Positions 46,475 through 55,291 of a stretch of 64,000 nucleotides of DNA are shown here, piece by piece. Position numbers and translations under genes: made by a program. The notes under the pieces were generated by a model. It saw only the letters and a list, made by a program, of their open reading frames with translations, was not told where the DNA came from and ran no database searches. Within the stretch, counting starts at the first letter, position 1, and every line of letters starts with the position of its first letter. This DNA comes from Sedimentisphaerales bacterium. GTDB taxonomy: Bacteria > Planctomycetota > Phycisphaerae > Sedimentisphaerales > SM23-30. The stretch lies in the NCBI GenBank assembly GCA_963666285.1, contig OY762711.1; one strand, written 5' to 3'.

Positions 46475-46930
46475 TAAACTTTTCTCCGTGAAAAATGGGA
46501 AGACACTGATACTCCTACTCTACAGATTTCAAATATACTATATTCATGACATGCAAGTCAAGATAATTTAATTACTGCAGAATATAACACAAATCAACAG
46601 TAATATCATTACGATGTAACTGCAAAAACACAATTATAAGACTCTAGGTATAATATATTTATGAACAACAACACATATGAAATCAACCGGAAACAATATG
46701 AGTTTAACACATAACTGGCTGCATTCTAAGCCATTTACATAGTAATAGGTTACAGATTCCATTGCGCAAGATTGCTTTTTTTTTGCGCAAAATACGCTTG
46801 AATTATAAGTAGTAAGGTTTAAAATTAAATTATAGTCATTAAGGTTAATTTCTGTAATCAATAGAAGCGGCGTCTTTGGATGCGGTATCTAGAGGCAATG
46901 TGTCTGGTAATATATTTGAGGTTTGGAAAG

Positions 46931-47647
46931 ATGAAAAAGTTACTATTGGTCATTTTCACAACGGTATTCTTAACGCAATCACTGCATGCTGCTCTTTTGC
47001 CTGCTGAAGTAAGTGCGCGTACCGAACTGTACAATGGTTCAGAATTTAAAGCAGATGAGTCAAGGGATGACGCTAGCAAGCTCAGTGTTAGAGGTGATGC
47101 TAAAGCTATGAAGTCCTGGATCAGGTTTGACTGCAGTTCCATTGACATAAGCTCTCTGATTAGTGCCGAGTTAAGAGTTACTCTACACCAGGATAAAAGC
47201 AGTTCATGCTCTGTGTCTGTTGTTAATGATGACTACTTGACAAACATTGACTGGGAAGAGGGCGACATTACCTGGAATAATGCTCCAGGAAACTATACTG
47301 CCACATGGGACGAAGTTAATGAAATCGCTGTTCCAGACAATGGTATTTCTGATAATGATCTACAAAAGAATCTGGACCCGACAGCTACAACAGTGATCGG
47401 CACCCTGAATTATGATGGTGTTGCTGGCGACCAGTTTACTATCGACGTACTTTCAGCTCTTCAGGCTGATACTGATGGTATTGTTCAGTTTGTACTTCAC
47501 GGTGCAGGCGGTAGCACAAGCTTTTCTACTCACGATCATCCTAGCGGAGCAGAATACTGGCCAACACTTGTATATGAAGTTCCGGAACCGGCTACCCTTG
47601 CCCTTATTGGCTTTGGCAGTCTGGCAGCATTAAAGAGACGTAAATAA
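46931..47647 (+). CDS. PEP-CTERM surface protein with one DNRLRE/CBM96-like domain
   Basis: Signal peptide from ATG 46931; KSWIRFD..ITWNNAP; C-terminal VPEPATLALIGFGSLAALKRRK. Confidence 0.88.
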   Translation: MKKLLLVIFTTVFLTQSLHAALLPAEVSARTELYNGSEFKADESRDDASKLSVRGDAKAMKSWIRFDCSSIDISSLISAELRVTLHQDKSSSCSVSVVNDDYLTNIDWEEGDITWNNAPGNYTATWDEVNEIAVPDNGISDNDLQKNLDPTATTVIGTLNYDGVAGDQFTIDVLSALQADTDGIVQFVLHGAGGSTSFSTHDHPSGAEYWPTLVYEVPEPATLALIGFGSLAALKRRK

Positions 47648-47664
47648 TTATTTTCAGATATTTT

Positions 47665-47700
47665 ATAAATGACACCGGTAATAATACCGGTGTCATTTAT
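47665..47700 (+). terminator. Hairpin/terminator after the PEP-CTERM gene
   Basis: ATAAATGACACCGGTA..TACCGGTGTCATTTAT long inverted repeat. Confidence 0.7.
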
Positions 47701-47870
47701 AAACAAATAAAATAGAACAGTTATTAACATAACCTCTAAATTTCTTTTATAAATAGCTAAGTATTGTTTTTTTATCAAATAATGTGAGACAATAAGTTTC
47801 TACTAAGATATCGCTTTATTTGCTAAATTATTATATATATAGATTTTATAAAAGTAATTTTGAGGTTCAT

Positions 47871-48075
47871 TATTAGTGCGGTATCACACTTTTGACTGTT
47901 CAACATTACACGCAAAGGCCAGAACAGGGCCTTGTGAATGAAAAACTTTATATTTAAGTGTATTTCCGAGCTATTTCTCGAAAGTATATTTAATTCACAG
48001 CGTTGCAGGAAGGCCCTTTTAGGAGATTTACCAGAGGCTCTTCGTTATTGCAACTTAAAGACTGCGAAAGTTAAC
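47871..48075. repeat. Dispersed multi-hairpin repeat, copy 2
   Basis: Same conserved blocks and orientation as 34363-34578, with different loop/spacer sequences. Confidence 0.85.
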
Positions 48076-48463
48076 TTTTATATAAATAATACAATTGCAA
48101 ATACTTATTATTACTGAGTATTTTTATATATACAACAAGTATCGTTTATAATATTAATTACGAAAGAATTCTTATAACCTGTAGTTCTGAAACAGGTTGA
48201 ATCCGGCTAGAGTGTTAACAACTTATGACTGTCAGATCAAATAATTTTGTTGTGTCTAGATTTTTCTTTTTTATCTAAATTGAAACTAAGCTGTCTACTA
48301 AATCATAGTACGTATATTCCATGTTTTATAGATAGATAATATTTTGAATTAGATGTTAATTATGAATAGGTAAGAATTTATGCCTGGTTTTTATGCTGGC
48401 GGGTGCGTAGCCCAAAACACCAGGAATTAAATGATAATATTTTTCACTTTCAGGAGATCTGCT

Positions 48464-50554
48464 ATGAGAAAATTATGGTTTTTCCTTCTTATGTTATGTG
48501 TGGTTTGCAGCAGTAATCTGTCTGCAGCCTCACTAGTTGCGGTAGACAGCTGCAGAACGTCATTGAATAACGGTACAACATCCGATGCTGATACCGTAAA
48601 AGCTGATTCGAACAAGCTTAGTGTTCGCGGTGATGCAAAAGCAGCAAAATCATGGATAAAGTTTGATATAAGCAGCTTGGACGTAGGTTCGTTAACAGAA
48701 TGTAAATTACAGATCAGTTTGTATAAAGCCAAAAGCAGCACCTGCCTGCTATCGGCAGTTAACGACGACTATACCACCAATATCAGCTGGTCAAATGCTG
48801 ACCTGACATGGAATACCGGTCCAGGTAACTATACCAGCGCAGATGGTGTAAATGCAGATATAACAAGCGTTTCACAGGGTGATTTACAAGATAACCTTGA
48901 CCCAAGTCAAACAACACTGATAGGTACAGTAGACTACACAAATGGTGCCGCAGGCGATAGTTATCTGATAGATGTGCTACCAATCCTACAAGCTGATACA
49001 GATGGTATTGTACAGTTTGTATTGCATGGATCTGGCGGATCTACCGATTTTGCCACTCACACTGCCGATTCAGGAGAAGAAACATATCCTATGCTGGTAT
49101 ATGAGACAATTCCCGGCGGTGATTGCCCAGACTATGGTACTACCTATGTGAACTACGCAAGCCAGAGCTGTAGAACAGAGCTTTTTGACGGAACAAATGC
49201 AAGAGTAGATGATGTTAGAGCAGATAACAATAAATTATCTGTCAGAGGCGACAGCAAGGCCAGTAAATCATGGATCAAATTTGATATAAGTGATCTTGGC
49301 ATTGATACAAGCCTGGTAAAATCTGCTACTATAAGAGTGACACTTTATGCGCCAAAAGACAATACATGTTTGCTTTCTGCAATAAATGATGACTACCTGG
49401 ATAATATCGACTGGACAGATGGCACTCTGACCTGGAATAACGCACCTGGTAATATTACCAGTACAGATGGCGTAAACCCAGAAGATACAAGTTATTCTAC
49501 CGATGACCTGCAGGACAATCTCGATCCAGGCAAAACTACGCTAATTGGAACGGTTGATTACTCAGCAGGGTCAGGCGGTGTAGCAGGCGATCAGTACTTC
49601 CTGGATGTAACATCAATTGTTAAGTCAGATACAGACGGTATAATCCAATTTGCACTGCATGGTGCAGGTGGATATACTACATTCGCAACTCACGACATGA
49701 GTACTGTTCCTGTTACTGATGGAGAAGCTGTAGATTATTATCCTCAACTGACAATATTAGAAGGTCCGGCTGGTGCAGATAATCCATATCCATGCCAGGA
49801 TGATATAGTATCCTCAGATTTAGTAGGCTTGTCCTGGTCAAACCCTGACCCAAATACAGTTTCCGGTGCAATTACCCCTACTGTTTATCTGGGAACAACA
49901 GATAATAAAGCCGAAATGGACAGCGTAACCCTGGCTCCTAATGCACAGGGCGTATTACTAAATACAGCTAATTTCCCAAATTTTGGAAATCTTCAAAATC
50001 TAACTGATTACTACTGGACCGTTGATTGCTATGATAACAGTCCGGGTGAAGAACACACCAAAGGCGGTGATACCTGGCATTTCAGAGTCAATAATAATGA
50101 TGCTCCAATAGTTGATGCCGGCCCAGACATTACCGTATGGCTAGGCATGAGTGGAACAGCCGGTCAGGAAGCTGTAGATGTTGATGCTACAGTAACCGAT
50201 GACGGTCTGCCCAATCCACCAGCAGCATTTACAATGAAATGGACACAGGTCGATAATGGTGCCGCTCACGTTGGTATTGACCCTAATGACGTTGAAGATA
50301 TTTCTTTAACATTCAGTGAACGCGGCGATTATGAATTCCTGCTAACTGCTTCTGACGGAGCGGTAGAAGGATCAGATACAGTTCGTATTGTTGTTGGTGA
50401 TACACCATGCGATGCATCGCACATGGAAACAGGCGAAGATTTTGCAGCAGGCGATTCAAATGATGACTGCCTGGTAGATCTGCAGGATCTTGTTATGCTG
50501 ATCATAAACAACTGGCTAGATTGTACAGATGCTTTAACCAACTGTGAAGACTAG
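48464..50554 (+). CDS. Secreted protein: two DNRLRE/CBM96-like domains, Ig/PKD-like domains, C-terminal dockerin-like motif
   Basis: AGGAG RBS, ATG 48464; two KLSVRGD..KSWIKFD..NDDY..TWN..DTDGI.QF.LHG units; VDAGPD; GDSNDDCLVDLQDL..NWLDC. Confidence 0.82.
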   Translation: MRKLWFFLLMLCVVCSSNLSAASLVAVDSCRTSLNNGTTSDADTVKADSNKLSVRGDAKAAKSWIKFDISSLDVGSLTECKLQISLYKAKSSTCLLSAVNDDYTTNISWSNADLTWNTGPGNYTSADGVNADITSVSQGDLQDNLDPSQTTLIGTVDYTNGAAGDSYLIDVLPILQADTDGIVQFVLHGSGGSTDFATHTADSGEETYPMLVYETIPGGDCPDYGTTYVNYASQSCRTELFDGTNARVDDVRADNNKLSVRGDSKASKSWIKFDISDLGIDTSLVKSATIRVTLYAPKDNTCLLSAINDDYLDNIDWTDGTLTWNNAPGNITSTDGVNPEDTSYSTDDLQDNLDPGKTTLIGTVDYSAGSGGVAGDQYFLDVTSIVKSDTDGIIQFALHGAGGYTTFATHDMSTVPVTDGEAVDYYPQLTILEGPAGADNPYPCQDDIVSSDLVGLSWSNPDPNTVSGAITPTVYLGTTDNKAEMDSVTLAPNAQGVLLNTANFPNFGNLQNLTDYYWTVDCYDNSPGEEHTKGGDTWHFRVNNNDAPIVDAGPDITVWLGMSGTAGQEAVDVDATVTDDGLPNPPAAFTMKWTQVDNGAAHVGIDPNDVEDISLTFSERGDYEFLLTASDGAVEGSDTVRIVVGDTPCDASHMETGEDFAAGDSNDDCLVDLQDLVMLIINNWLDCTDALTNCED

Positions 50555-50589
50555 AAATTACCAATAAATATATCAGGAGAAATATAAAA

Positions 50590-51933
50590 ATGAAAAAATT
50601 AAGTTTTTTATTAATATTGTGTTTTCTTGCAAGCAGTGTATGGGCTGACGATACAATCATATCCGCATCAGTCAGTTGCCGTACAGACAAACTTCAACCA
50701 GATACTAATCGTTCAGATTCAAGCAAACTTAGTATCCGGTCAGACAATGAAGCTGCAAAATCATGGATCAAGTTCGAAATTACCGATTTTGCTCCAGAGA
50801 CATATCGCAAAGCAATACTACGTCTGGCCTTGCAGGATCATGGAGAGACAGCATCAACCTTTAGCGTTTCAGCAGTAAATGACGACTATCTTGATAATAT
50901 CGTCTGGGCAGAAAGAGATATAACCTGGAATAATGCCCCAGCTAATGACACAGCCAGCCAGACAGATCTATTGCCTGGTACAACTACCCTTATGGGCAGC
51001 ATTTCATATCCGGATGGTACAGTTCAAGGCGACCAGTTTTATATCGATGTAACAGATGCGATACTAGCTGATACAGATGGTATAATACAGTTTGTTTTGC
51101 ATAACGGTTCAGGCTTGATCAATATTTGTACTCACGATCATAGTTTAGGTGCCGATGTATGGCCAACATTAATACTGACACCAAGACCGGCAGGAGCAGA
51201 TTACCCTGTTCCAGATTATGATGAAGTTGTAGCACCAACATTATCAGAGCTATCCTGGAAGAATCCTGATCCGAATGACGGAGCCAGCCTGATTACCTGC
51301 GATGTATACCTGACGACAGATCCAAATATGTTAACAATGGATATGGTTACCTTAGCGGCCGGTGAAAATTCGGTTGCTATAAACACAACAAACTTCCCGA
51401 ATTATGGTAACCTAGCTGATAATACCATGCATTACTGGAAAGTAGACTGTCATGATCCGAGTAGAGATAATATGATTCCGGGCGAACCATGGAATTTCTA
51501 TGTTGGTGCCCCTCCTGCAATTGATGCCGGTGAAGACCAGATATTGTGGCTTGACGGTGCTTCAGAAATAACTGTTAATCTTGACGGAACCAGTTCAAGC
51601 AGTACAACCTATACTGTTGAATGGACTCAAGTTACAACAGGTGCCCCTACAGTTGCTATTGCCCCTGCTGATGCTGATGATACATCGTTAACAATAACAG
51701 CTCGCGGTGATTATGAGTTTATGCTGACAGGTAATGACGGCATTCTTGTTGGCTCTGATACCGTTCGCATCGTGGTTGGTAATGATGCATGTGATGCATC
51801 ACATATTAATTTTGGTGATGCTTACAATGAAGCTGACCAGAATCAGGATTGTGTAGTTGATCTGCTGGATTTCGTGGCACTTATCGCCTCTGACTGGCTA
51901 GGCTGCACAGATACACTTACAAATTGTAATTAA
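50590..51933 (+). CDS. Secreted paralogue: one DNRLRE/CBM96-like domain, Ig/PKD-like domains, dockerin-like motif
   Basis: KLSIRSD..KSWIKFE..NDDY..ITWNNAP..DTDGIIQF; DAGEDQ; ADQNQDCVVDLLDF..DWLGC. Confidence 0.82.
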   Translation: MKKLSFLLILCFLASSVWADDTIISASVSCRTDKLQPDTNRSDSSKLSIRSDNEAAKSWIKFEITDFAPETYRKAILRLALQDHGETASTFSVSAVNDDYLDNIVWAERDITWNNAPANDTASQTDLLPGTTTLMGSISYPDGTVQGDQFYIDVTDAILADTDGIIQFVLHNGSGLINICTHDHSLGADVWPTLILTPRPAGADYPVPDYDEVVAPTLSELSWKNPDPNDGASLITCDVYLTTDPNMLTMDMVTLAAGENSVAINTTNFPNYGNLADNTMHYWKVDCHDPSRDNMIPGEPWNFYVGAPPAIDAGEDQILWLDGASEITVNLDGTSSSSTTYTVEWTQVTTGAPTVAIAPADADDTSLTITARGDYEFMLTGNDGILVGSDTVRIVVGNDACDASHINFGDAYNEADQNQDCVVDLLDFVALIASDWLGCTDTLTNCN

Positions 51934-51983: not shown

Positions 51984-52017
51984 GGGCTCGTAAAGTAGAT
52001 TTACGGGCCCATTTTTT
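51984..52017 (+). terminator. Rho-independent terminator
   Basis: GGGCTCGTAAA..TTTACGGGCCC stem followed by a T-tract. Confidence 0.8.
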
Positions 52018-52039
52018 ATATGTGGAAAGCTATATACCA

Positions 52040-53890
52040 GGCAAGGGATGGAACAGACCTCGCTTCGCTCGGACCAGACATAGTCTGGACTAGGCCTCGC
52101 TTCGCTCGGAGACGAATTGAAATTGTAATGTCTAATAACCGTTCATTCTGAACGGAAAGGCCAGTGACAAATCGTTTTAATATTCTGTTTTTATTGAGCG
52201 TTGTTTATGTTTAAGACGAAGTTTTCGTCGTTGTTATGTTTTAACGAGAGCTGATTTTTGCTGGTAATCATTTTTTGTTGGCTCTCTACTATTGGAAGGT
52301 ATGTCGAAAGTGCGCTGATTTTATGGGTGGGATGGTTGGTGTGGAAATTTGTAAGGTGTTGGGGATAAGCGGGATAAAATTTTTGAAGATTTTAGATTTT
52401 CGCGTTTTGGTGGTTGTAAAAACGCGGTGATTTTTTCGAGAAAATCAGTGGCCAGGAATCAGGTTTCAGGTGCCAGGGAAGGTTGCTCGCTACCGATCGC
52501 GGGTAATTGATGGATGTCGGGAGGTGTGTGGGATATAAACGAGGCAGCGCGGCGGTGGGACGGCGGTGAAAAGGGTAACGGATTTGAGCGGCGGGGAATT
52601 GCGGGCTGCGGGCAGTATACGGCGGAACGTTGAATGGGTGCGGCGGTATACGGACGGGAACGGAGCGGAGACGCGGGAGGCAGGTAAAAAGTAAGAGGTA
52701 AGAGGTAAAAGGTGAGGTGTCTTGTACCGTACGGTACAGGACCTTATTTTAAGCGGCTGACGCCTTAAAAAAAGAGAACCACAGATGAACGCAGATGCAC
52801 ACTGATAAAGAAAGAAATGGAAAGCGTTTCTGAAGTATCAAGTATAAAGGATAAAGTATAAAAAATCAAGAGAGCTTGTCAGCAGCGAGTTGCCAGCGAC
52901 CAGCAACCAGCGGTCAGTTAAGAGGAAATACGTGCCGAGCGACGGAGGTCGCTGAATAGTTGACAGGAGAAAAGGAGAACAGGCAATCAGCTACGAGCTG
53001 CGAGCGGTCAGCTGCCAGCAGATAAAATTCGTGCTACGCACTCTGGCACATCATTGGATGAGTCCAATGATGTGAAGGAGTCGCTGACGCGACCTGTTTA
53101 AATAATGTGCCGAGCTTGTGCTCAGCGTTCCCAGGGGGAAAGAAGGTATTAGGTGTTGGGTATTTGGTATTAGGAAAGGTAACGGCTTCGCCGAGGCTAA
53201 TTGATATATAAGTGAGAGTATTGGGGTGAAGGATGGGTTAAAAAACGGAATGAAATTGAAGGGTGCGGAGATGTTATGCCGGGTGCGGGAAGAATAACGG
53301 TGGGCTGGGAATTTTGCGGGAATTGTTGTAAGTTGTTATTTTGGGTTTGTGGGCGGACCAGACAGGTGCCGTGAAGCGGCATCTGAAGTCTGAAGTTTGA
53401 AGTCTGAATTCTGAAAAGATGGTGTTCGCCTGGCGGCGAGCTACGCTAAATGAAAAATGAATAATTAAAAGTGAAAAATTAAGGTGTCCGCTTCGCGGAT
53501 GGCTTGTTTTAAATGGCTACCGCCGAACGACCGAAGGTCGTTAGAGATTAGAGCAGATGATAGTAGAACAGGCAATCAGCGACGAGCTACGAGCGGCCAG
53601 CGGTCAGCGGTCAGTGAAGAGGAAATACGTGCTGCGCACTCTAGCGGCGAGCGAACAGCAAGCAGCCAAGCTGCTAGAAATTATAATCTCGATGTGCAAC
53701 TGGATTTCGCTATGCTCAACAATTGGTACTCGTGGCGATGTTGGATTGGATGGAAAAAATATTATTCAGGAAGAATAAATCGGTTGCTCGCAGAGGCCGC
53801 AAAGCTCGCAAAGAATATTACTTGACCATGAAGGAAGTGAAGAGCTTGAAGAAAGAAGTTTAAATTAAGAATTCAAAATTAAGAAAACAA
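52040..53890. repeat. Non-coding mosaic of 7-nt tandem-repeat tracts, 9/10-nt triplets and GC-rich hairpins
   Basis: About ten distinct 7-periodic tracts, three 9/10-periodic triplets and more than ten short palindromes; G/A-rich + strand; no credible ORF. Confidence 0.85.
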
Positions 53891-53957
53891 TTGTCTGGTC
53901 CTGTGATAAGTTGTCACATTATAGATTTAATGTTTTAACAAATAACAGGAGACAACA

Positions 53958-54377
53958 ATGTTGGTAAGTAAACGAACTTATAATCGCTACAGCGAAGCCT
54001 TTAAATTACAGGTGGTAAATGATCTTGAATCTGGTAAGCTAAGCAGTATTTATGAGGCTAATTCCCGCTATGGGATTTCTGGTACAACAACAGTAAAGAG
54101 TTGGCTAAGAAAATATGGCCGTAACCATTTGATACCAAAGGTGATACGCGTGGAAAAACTAGATGAACAAGATCATGTAAAGAAGTTAGAATCAGAGATT
54201 AAGCAGCTTAAAGAAGCGTTAGCAGACAGCCATATAGAGAATATTGTAAGTGAAGCCAGGTTTCAGGTTATTTGTAAAGAATACGGGCTGGATCCCGAGG
54301 AGTATAAAAAAAAAGTCGATACCAAACGGTTCAACAAGCGTCCGAGGCAACCGTTGAAAAGAAAGAGGAAAAAATAG
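53958..54377 (+). CDS. IS3-family transposase OrfA (HTH)
   Basis: RYSEAFKLQVV..YGIS..TV.SWLRKYG; A9 slippery run at 54306-54314. Confidence 0.9.
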   Translation: MLVSKRTYNRYSEAFKLQVVNDLESGKLSSIYEANSRYGISGTTTVKSWLRKYGRNHLIPKVIRVEKLDEQDHVKKLESEIKQLKEALADSHIENIVSEARFQVICKEYGLDPEEYKKKVDTKRFNKRPRQPLKRKRKK

Positions 54378-55150
54378 CGATAACTTCCTTATGCAAAGCT
54401 GTTGGCATGAGTCGTCAGAATTATTATAAATCACATAAAGTTCGGCGCAGGCGGCACTATGAAAAAGACCTGATAATATCTTTGGCCAGGCTGGAAAGAT
54501 CATTGCAGCCTGAGATGGGTTGCAGAAAGGTTTTGAAGCGTATAAAGCCCAAACTGGCAAAAGCCGGTATTAGTATAGGGCGAGATAGATTTTATGAAAC
54601 GATGTCAGAAGCAGATATGTTGATAGAGCGTAAAAAGCGAAGTGTGACAACGACAGACAGTCGTCATAACTTTAAGACTTATAAGAATATACTGAAAGAT
54701 GAAGAGCTTACAGGAGCCAATCAGGCCCTGGTAAGTGATATAACGTACATATATACAGATGAAGGATTTATGTATCTGTCGTTGATAATGGATGCATTTA
54801 GTCGCAAGATAGTTGGCTATGACTGTAGTGATAGTTTGGAAGCAGAAGGTTGTTTGCGTGCATTAACAAAGGCGATAAAGCAATTGCCCAAAGGTAGTAA
54901 TACGATACATCATTCAGATCGTGGCAGTCAGTATTGCTGCCATAGATATATAGATAAGCTTAAAAGAAATGGGCTGCGAGTTAGTATGACCGAAGATAAT
55001 CATTGTTATGAGAATGCCCAGGCCGAGAGGTTAAACGGTATATTGAAGCACGAGTATGGATTGAAGAATACGTTTAAGAAAAAAGCTCATGTTCATGCTG
55101 CGGTTAAACAGGCGATAGAACTGTATAATACCTATAGAAACGGAAAGTGA
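54308..55150 (+). CDS. IS3-family transposase OrfB (DDE), expressed by -1 frameshift; C-terminus appears truncated
   Basis: -1 frame open from 54308; LCKAVGMSRQNYY, SDITY, HHSDRGSQY, ENAQAERLNGILK.E; ends YNTYRNGK with the stop inside IRR. Confidence 0.85.
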   Translation, partial: KKSRYQTVQQASEATVEKKEEKIAITSLCKAVGMSRQNYYKSHKVRRRRHYEKDLIISLARLERSLQPEMGCRKVLKRIKPKLAKAGISIGRDRFYETMSEADMLIERKKRSVTTTDSRHNFKTYKNILKDEELTGANQALVSDITYIYTDEGFMYLSLIMDAFSRKIVGYDCSDSLEAEGCLRALTKAIKQLPKGSNTIHHSDRGSQYCCHRYIDKLKRNGLRVSMTEDNHCYENAQAERLNGILKHEYGLKNTFKKKAHVHAAVKQAIELYNTYRNGK

Positions 55151-55291
55151 CAACTTTAAATCAGGACTTGACAAATTGAAAAATAACCTCTCCATCAATA
55201 ATCTTTAATAAATTATGCCATGACAAAAATGCCAGGCTTAAACATATCTCTATATGTACCGACAGGTTAAACAAATACACGCCAATAATTA

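Follow-up and report, generated by a model that had tools for sequence, protein, structure and literature searches.

The stretch analysed here, called the window, comprised 64,000 nucleotides from the chromosome contig (C1) of a Sedimentisphaerales bacterium (genome G000), and a non-coding array of short modules occupied its positions 52040-53890. Upstream, the gene of a CBM96-domain protein (50590-51933) was followed by a plus-strand hairpin resembling an intrinsic terminator (51984-52018), and the element began just past this hairpin. Three paralogous secreted proteins were clustered at 46880-51933, the CBM96 domain being shown for two of them and the first carrying what is presumably a PEP-CTERM-like tail; the genome had further paralogs at C1:2.34 and 2.57 Mb, and three congeners yielded no match.

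Optional pre-head modules, present only in some copies of the element, came first (52036-52178, plus strand) and consisted of two units of 37 nt each, which ended in a GC hairpin and were followed by a linker. Next came the head (52179-52680, plus strand), which was conserved, G/T-rich and non-coding and began sharply on the left; the genome held 30 full, micro-mosaic copies of it. On the minus strand, the head terminus (52179-52199) bore a resemblance, and a resemblance only, to a boxA-like motif located 5' of both 16S rRNA genes. Boxes of this kind matching the rRNA leader word were detected at G000:C1:3246261, 3851034 and 6150241, the non-rRNA sites lying outside module loci. Inside the head, a CAGG heptamer tract with its hairpin (52441-52505, plus strand) formed an exchangeable slot of 65 nt, which was occupied by another tract-plus-hairpin module in 9/30 copies.

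The modules beyond the head were all on the plus strand. They started with a GTAAGAG tract, the word GGTGT, a hairpin (52719-52742) and a T-rich hub (together 52681-52765), and continued with a module of about 10-nt period (52773-52812; 25 copies genome-wide), an AAGTATA heptamer tract (52826-52872; 22 copies), two AGC-type heptamer tracts with a hairpin (52938-52953) in between (52879-53022), a hairpin cluster (53020-53137, with hairpins at 53031-53041, 53047-53074, 53080-53093 and 53109-53126) and a GGTATTA heptamer tract with hairpin (53140-53195; 39 copies, 35 of them outside head-bearing arrays). A second conserved G/T-rich block, block C, was located at 53181-53362; its 22 copies were mosaic and not linked to the head, and it contained the 15-nt box GTAAGTnnTTATTTT (53328-53342), which in other genera of the family was iterated every 32-34 nt and opened analogous heads. 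The right part was composed of a hairpin, a TGAAGTC tract, a GGTGT-hairpin, an AAATGAA tract, a second GGTGT-hairpin and a T-rich hub (53362-53514), then of a hairpin, the third AGC-type tract and linkers (53524-53690), which nearly repeated 52879-53047, and finally of 9-nt-period modules with an AATTAAG tract at the right end (53780-53891). The right boundary of the array was an IS3-family element (53892-55173, plus strand), which had entered where the last tract ends and had duplicated 3 nt of its target (53889-53891 and 55174-55176).

The heptamer periodicity of 52040-53890 was evaluated against 200 block-wise dinucleotide shuffles. Self-identity at lag 7 was 0.364, compared to 0.277 +/- 0.010 in the shuffles (z 8.5); the harmonics at lags 14 and 21 reached z 4.0 and 3.2, and every other lag from 1 to 30 stayed at or below z 1.9. 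Nine period-7 tracts scored at least 8, compared to a mean of 0.115 and a maximum of 3 in the shuffles, and a tenth tract (53853-53885) scored at lag 14. TRF returned nine period-7 rows for the 64-kb window, eight of which were within the array. The period-7 signal named in the original prediction was thus above shuffled controls, and the palindromes and the three GGTGT links between tract and hairpin that it listed were present in the sequence; larger hairpins, such as that at 53047-53074, were found beyond its list. Its statement that each of ten tracts had its own sequence did not hold for three, since those at 52881, 52982 and 53571 were variants of a single AGC-type family, 71-82% alike. 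The lack of conserved sequence which it had seen was true inside the window only; genome-wide, each of 25 tested segments of the array had 2-59 copies. A conserved period and layout without conserved sequence was therefore an incorrect description, the modules being dispersed repeat families, and because of this the templated repeat synthesis de novo that it had offered was not required. Its judgement that independent slippage was not at work was borne out. The two main features of the locus, the 30-copy head and the short-patch mosaicism, were absent from it.

Copies across the genome were located by BLAST of the region against the genome. The chromosome contig contained 261 period-7 tracts, compared with 40 of period 6 and 17 of period 8, and 218 of the 261 were outside long ORFs. 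The module kit as a whole was confined to this contig, where it amounted to 426 loci and 83,434 bases, with a single polarity at 419 of the loci. At 30 loci the collinear head of about 500 nt was followed by modules in varying order. With 25 markers, 29 distinct orders were recorded in the 30 copies, some strings being shortened by IS insertions or by the chosen lengths, and the tract markers were 187 forward and 0 reverse. The module paths branched at short hub words, including ATTTTAAA, TAGAACAG and GAGGTGTC, and the hairpins were trailed by T-rich tails. The left ends of the copies were sharp with unrelated flanks and the right ends ragged, the genes flanking head copies were unrelated to one another, and co-orientation with the upstream gene was weak (238/403 loci). 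A second G-rich, CGG-laden block was observed at C1:252200-252700, 908500-908900 and 1129900, which ended in the terminal word of block C and led into the same modules.

The heads were then compared base by base. Head pairs were 71 to about 92% identical and none higher, the copies being 15-17% divergent, and 193 of the 500 head columns were invariant. The swapped 65-nt block, which inflates the r2 profile when kept, was excluded from the r2, allele and conversion-model analyses. Linkage disequilibrium in the head decayed rapidly, with r2 of 0.44, 0.18, 0.09 and 0.04 at 1-5, 6-10, 11-20 and 21-40 nt; beyond 160 nt it was 0.035, compared to about 0.034 for unlinked sites. Background was reached in about 20 nt. 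In six clonal simulations r2 stayed at 0.27-0.47 beyond 80 nt, and a star phylogeny with hotspots gave a flat r2 of 0.03-0.04; the decay was produced by neither. Since the star control also matched the far-range r2, the case for recombination is based on the decay together with the multi-base alleles. Of 16 such alleles 11 were retained, after removal of four that were surplus markers of the swapped block and of a fifth that was nested within an adjacent allele. All four combinations were found in 33 of 53 pairs of the 11 alleles, compared to 33.4 +/- 3.2 under random assortment, and repeat origin of such alleles by point mutation is unlikely. Distances in the head and in block C were uncorrelated (r -0.09; 20 block C copies aligned), as were divergence and genomic distance (r -0.005), and private differences numbered 0-11 per copy out of 28-61.

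In a closed conversion model of 30 copies (five runs per setting), only mean tracts of 15-30 nt approached the observed longest identical run of 81 and the best pair identity of 0.92, and tracts of at least 60 nt gave identical runs of at least 132. The closed model underpredicted r2 at 1-5 nt (0.13-0.16 against 0.44 observed), and its singleton share was about 0.30 compared to 0.42 observed. An open, larger template pool, or birth of each copy as a mosaic, would also yield fast decay. The comparison of hairpin stems with loops was dominated by one loop. In another sample (run X3), a contig (L017:6082-6969) joined the unique flank of copy E7 to pre-head alleles of other copies, which could be a strain-level conversion or a collapsed assembly path; this run, considered with regard to extrachromosomal copies, showed very high depth on repeat contigs, but its unique flanks varied 0-66-fold around another copy.

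It was considered whether small elements had piled up independently at hotspots without exchange, or whether the array was an assembly artefact. Most modules were also found alone and real IS elements were nested in the arrays, as a pile-up would have it. Nevertheless, a collinear head of 500 nt common to 30 loci and the four-gamete incompatibility of multi-base alleles speak against it. As to an artefact, two short-read contig sets, probably from the source sample and independent of the assembly only, contained 78% and 76% of sampled 31-mers, and short-read contigs matched 52925-53057 and 53613-53812 with no difference and at single-copy depth. Summed depth was about 900-1000 over the head and 24-28 on the flanks, such a sum not being a copy number. 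Both explanations were thus largely refuted and are extremely improbable.

The four-helix-bundle (TIGR02436) genes, to which the original prediction had tentatively tied heptamer tracts, were evaluated in the whole genome. Ten matches were found, none of which fell in the region, in line with the absence it had reported. When lag 7 or 14, wider windows and matching backgrounds were used, a tract was located within 330 nt upstream of 8/10 TIGR02436 genes, compared to 9.8% of all genes, in support of that tie; the stricter test (lag 7 only, 250 nt) gave 3/10 against 3.9%. Several of these upstream tracts were of the same kinds as those in the arrays. In relatives, 19 TIGR02436 loci had a tract upstream in 12 and downstream in 13 cases (shuffles 1.2%), and at 8 of the 19 a purine-rich upstream arm with a complementary downstream arm was recognised by eye. 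Compared with such heptamer-armed cassettes, in which tracts of the window's kind lie 5' of the gene here and in relatives, the window had no TIGR02436 gene between inverted heptamer arms, and its arms were of the purine strand only and never complementary; the arrays look like chains of upstream arms only. Three observations count against an origin from cassette arms: the inverted downstream arm was not seen at the four-helix-bundle genes of G000, two of the ten genes were tandem duplicates, and one was cut by the tract. At G000:C1:45322-46300, tandem amplification of a four-helix-bundle gene had produced two complete copies and one incomplete one, all of them preceded by heptamer leaders of their own. 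No description of a link between heptamers and four-helix-bundle genes was found in a literature search, most subscription papers being outside its coverage.

Among protein clusters, only the IS3, IS110 and four-helix-bundle families were enriched beside modules. The suggestion that the region serves as a landing pad agreed with the insertion of mobile elements. Under the same looser settings as above, 11/12 IS3 copies were within 20 nt downstream of a tract and in the same orientation, compared to 3.2% of random intergenic sites, and the twelfth had a tract on its other side; in the stricter test (lag 7 only), 6/12 were within 15 nt of a tract against 1.9%. Compared with the other copies measured, the IS3 copy of the window lacked, as assembled, 130 nt near the end of orfB. 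An IS110-family element with a 348-aa transposase and a long right non-coding end was also involved: 11/16 members of its cluster adjoined modules, and the nine copies traced (G000:C1:714490 and eight other sites) all started at a 10-nt-period unit, and eight were judged by eye to sit within kit sequence. Two near-identical group II introns whose RT genes were intact (G000:C1:910720-912655 and 5395300-5397270) were both inside heptamer tracts in purine-strand orientation. These elements are guests rather than builders, because they interrupt arrays with their own ends. A parallel is given by IS1397 and IS621, which insert at REPs (PMC1525189); a strong oriented preference of an IS3 element for heptamer tracts was a target type not found in the available part of that paper.

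A mobilising enzyme carrying the ends of the element was not found in this genome, which was 97% complete. Of 14 chromosomal tyrosine recombinase loci checked, 13 had no module within 2.5 kb and the other was a Xer-like gene. The RT matches were of group II intron type, the GxxExxY family (PF13366) had no match in the genome, and of two GIY-YIG matches the small one had flanks without kit modules. One candidate builder would be a nuclease of the HUH (Y1) type, which would recognise a 5' GGTGT tag plus hairpin in single-stranded DNA and would cut modules and join them anew, as in REPs and BIMEs. GGTGT was indeed 3' of 78/261 tracts on the purine strand and 5' of 2, a tag-plus-hairpin layout which parallels REPs with their GTAG and hairpin; BIME variants have been made in vitro by TnpA-REP (PMC3333891), and REPs are likewise targeted by IS3 and IS110 elements (PMC1525189). 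However, none of the five Y1 (PF01797) loci had a module within 2.5 kb, and kit hairpins were absent from the flanks of the three Y1 types inspected. In addition, there were no inverted pairs of modules, no replichore bias was detected (215 leading and 188 lagging loci), and the mosaicism of the hairpin-poor head would be left unaccounted for. This origin is decidedly improbable.

Several other identities were rejected. A protein-coding remnant was not supported by head variability at the three codon positions (0.119/0.119/0.110, no bias), and the plus strand lacked a 100-codon frame in 30/30 copies, with minus-strand frames broken in 19/30; short ORFs at 53484 and 53557 consisted of shuffled modules. 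A CRISPR or integron cassette array did not fit putative 'spacers' that were themselves multi-copy. A diversity-generating retroelement was dismissed on alleles per site of 0.88 for A, 1.04 for C, 0.89 for G and 0.77 for T, without adenine bias, and on the intron type of the RTs. A MITE was not supported either, the modules being one-way and no convincing inverted pair joining the two ends of the element among the 25 longest of 134; with left ends sharp but right ends ragged, no target duplication could be delimited for the element itself. An IS701-type MITE that was compared with it proved to be a different repeat, with at most a short segment in common.

The sixty relatives searched had no head, and exact-pattern scans of metagenome, genome and viral collections gave no match to the head, hairpin or block C motifs. 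The congeners G001 and G003 had multi-copy mosaic kits of their own, with other sequences. Composite arrays of up to about 2 kb were observed in G001 (L010, L014, L016) and G003 (L029-L033), those of G001 with internal tandem amplification of multi-module units. At E7, a locus that follows the nth gene, two congeners ran directly into the next gene with no array. An ortholog of the CBM96 gene flanking the window's copy was not found in three congeners, so that no empty site was available for this locus. The 15-nt box of block C was exact in 5/24 family members and in 0/126 other genomes of the order. In family members it opened G/T-rich multi-copy heads, and 29/29 gaps measured 32-34 nt; heptamer tracts came after such heads in 4/8 loci with enough sequence and upstream of them in 0/15 loci. 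Box-opened elements of this type, often at contig ends, were observed in G018, G020, G022 and G010 (L064-L079). Because box-opened heads followed by tracts occur in other family members, the layout of head and polar tracts recurs in the family while its sequence turns over.

Such phased boxes, together with terminator-like hairpins and a boxA-like end, might instead form a functional nucleoprotein or RNA array under selection, with recombination as a side effect. The invariant head columns (193/500), the box kept across genera at a constant spacing, the T-rich tails of the hairpins and the boxA-like terminus are what selection for function could leave. Yet the head was absent from the 60 relatives, IS insertions were tolerated, and the flanking genes were unrelated. 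Nothing scored above the gathering score in Rfam, with two matches below it, and 0/30 predicted pairs covaried in six heads, for which the left half of the head was analysed. The processed ncRNA array considered in the original prediction was backed by neither Rfam nor covariation, and a functional array is very unlikely.

The region is best explained as belonging to a family of 30 mosaic repeats, non-coding and of a single polarity, the members of which probably exchange short patches by homology-directed template exchange; the probability of this reading is put at roughly 55%. The exchange would be gene conversion or template switching at common words of about 8-30 bases. The heptamer modules would be gene-less, purine-rich upstream arms of four-helix-bundle cassettes, interspersed among further small units such as hairpins and 9/10-nt repeats, and exchange at hub words between copies of the same orientation would reorder modules and preserve polarity. 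The element would be non-autonomous, and any enzyme seeding new sites would act in trans. Host recombination or replication-linked template switching was ranked first because no dedicated enzyme was found. That the exchange takes place in place is inferred from one genome, since neither an empty site nor a same-locus allelic change between strains was seen. Mismatch repair should suppress recombination between copies that are 15-17% divergent, and the mutS gene was present and intact, so the presence of MutS counts against this reading. Homology-based exchange also leaves the first joining of unrelated modules in one polarity, and the period of 7, unaccounted for.

A different route by way of RNA would make each copy a mosaic from birth. 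Here an Avd-like four-helix-bundle protein would bind purine-strand transcripts, a group II intron RT acting in trans would jump between templates, and the cDNA would integrate after gene ends; TIGR02436 proteins are presumably kin to Avd. Strict polarity, one sharp and one ragged end, and the absence of near-identical pairs despite few private changes would all follow from such a birth. It would also suit the tracts on the sense strand upstream of four-helix-bundle genes and the two intact intron RT genes inside heptamer tracts, and Avd partners RT in diversity-generating retroelements (PMC7826257). On the other hand, the variation was without adenine bias, co-orientation with upstream genes was weak, the RTs were ordinary intron RTs and the heads were without covariation. 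This route is unlikely. A family-wide form of it is quite doubtful, in which a dedicated single-strand shuffling system operates: the Avd-like protein would read purine-strand heptamer RNAs, an RT in trans would stitch pieces of 5-30 nt from many templates so that no two new elements are born with the same micro-mosaic, and integration would be signalled in cis by the head and its 33-nt-phased box. If true, bacteria would possess a new class of non-autonomous retroelement, and their excess of heptamers would be explained.

Among known systems, the best reading of the family is BIME/NIME-like, although it belongs to none of REP/BIME, NIME, CRISPR and DGR. The REP/BIME elements of enterobacteria and pseudomonads, which are connected with RAYT/TnpA-REP, are likewise intergenic, high-copy mosaic arrays of small 5'-tagged hairpins (PMC3333891, PMC3733652, PMC1525189), and, like the family here, they are targeted by IS3- and IS110-family elements (PMC1525189). 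In contrast to them, the tag here was GGTGT instead of the GTAG or CGTC of REPs, inverted pairs and an associated Y1 gene were lacking, and there were more than 10 heptamer and 9/10-nt tract types in addition to a 500-nt conserved head. NIME arrays (dRS3/RS) resemble the family as long, dynamic arrays of many short repeat families with opportunistic IS insertions (PMC1797815), and many repeat families with nested IS elements were found here too. New versions of NIME arrays were proposed to arise by recombination, and the same source states that they were not seen outside Neisseria (PMC1797815). Unlike in NIME arrays, no single 20-bp inverted repeat bracketed every unit here; various hub words and hairpins were present, none between all modules, along with strict polarity and tandem heptamer tracts. 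The intergenic heptamer repeats of Beggiatoaceae, cyanobacteria, Bacteroidetes and Xanthomonas share the period of 7, mostly about 4 units and an unexplained origin, and near-identical heptamer assemblages are mentioned for Elizabethkingia (PMC4679880, PMC4692102). In contrast to those repeats, the elements here are composites in which many different heptamers and hairpins are strung together and which recombine freely. The literature search, with the coverage given above, turned up no account of this element. The present analysis contributes the head in its 30 copies, free assortment as measured at 10-30 nt, a phased box found in several genera, and the orientation of IS3 targeting.

Although heptamer repeats of bacteria have been on record for decades, no mechanism has been given for them (PMC4692102, PMC4679880). 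Our work provided a countable system in which 30 homologous elements on one chromosome behave like a population recombining freely at 10-30 bases, despite divergence of 15-17% and an intact mutS gene. The question is thereby made testable, by strain comparison and by assays of specific candidates, namely the four-helix-bundle protein and the factor that binds the phased box.
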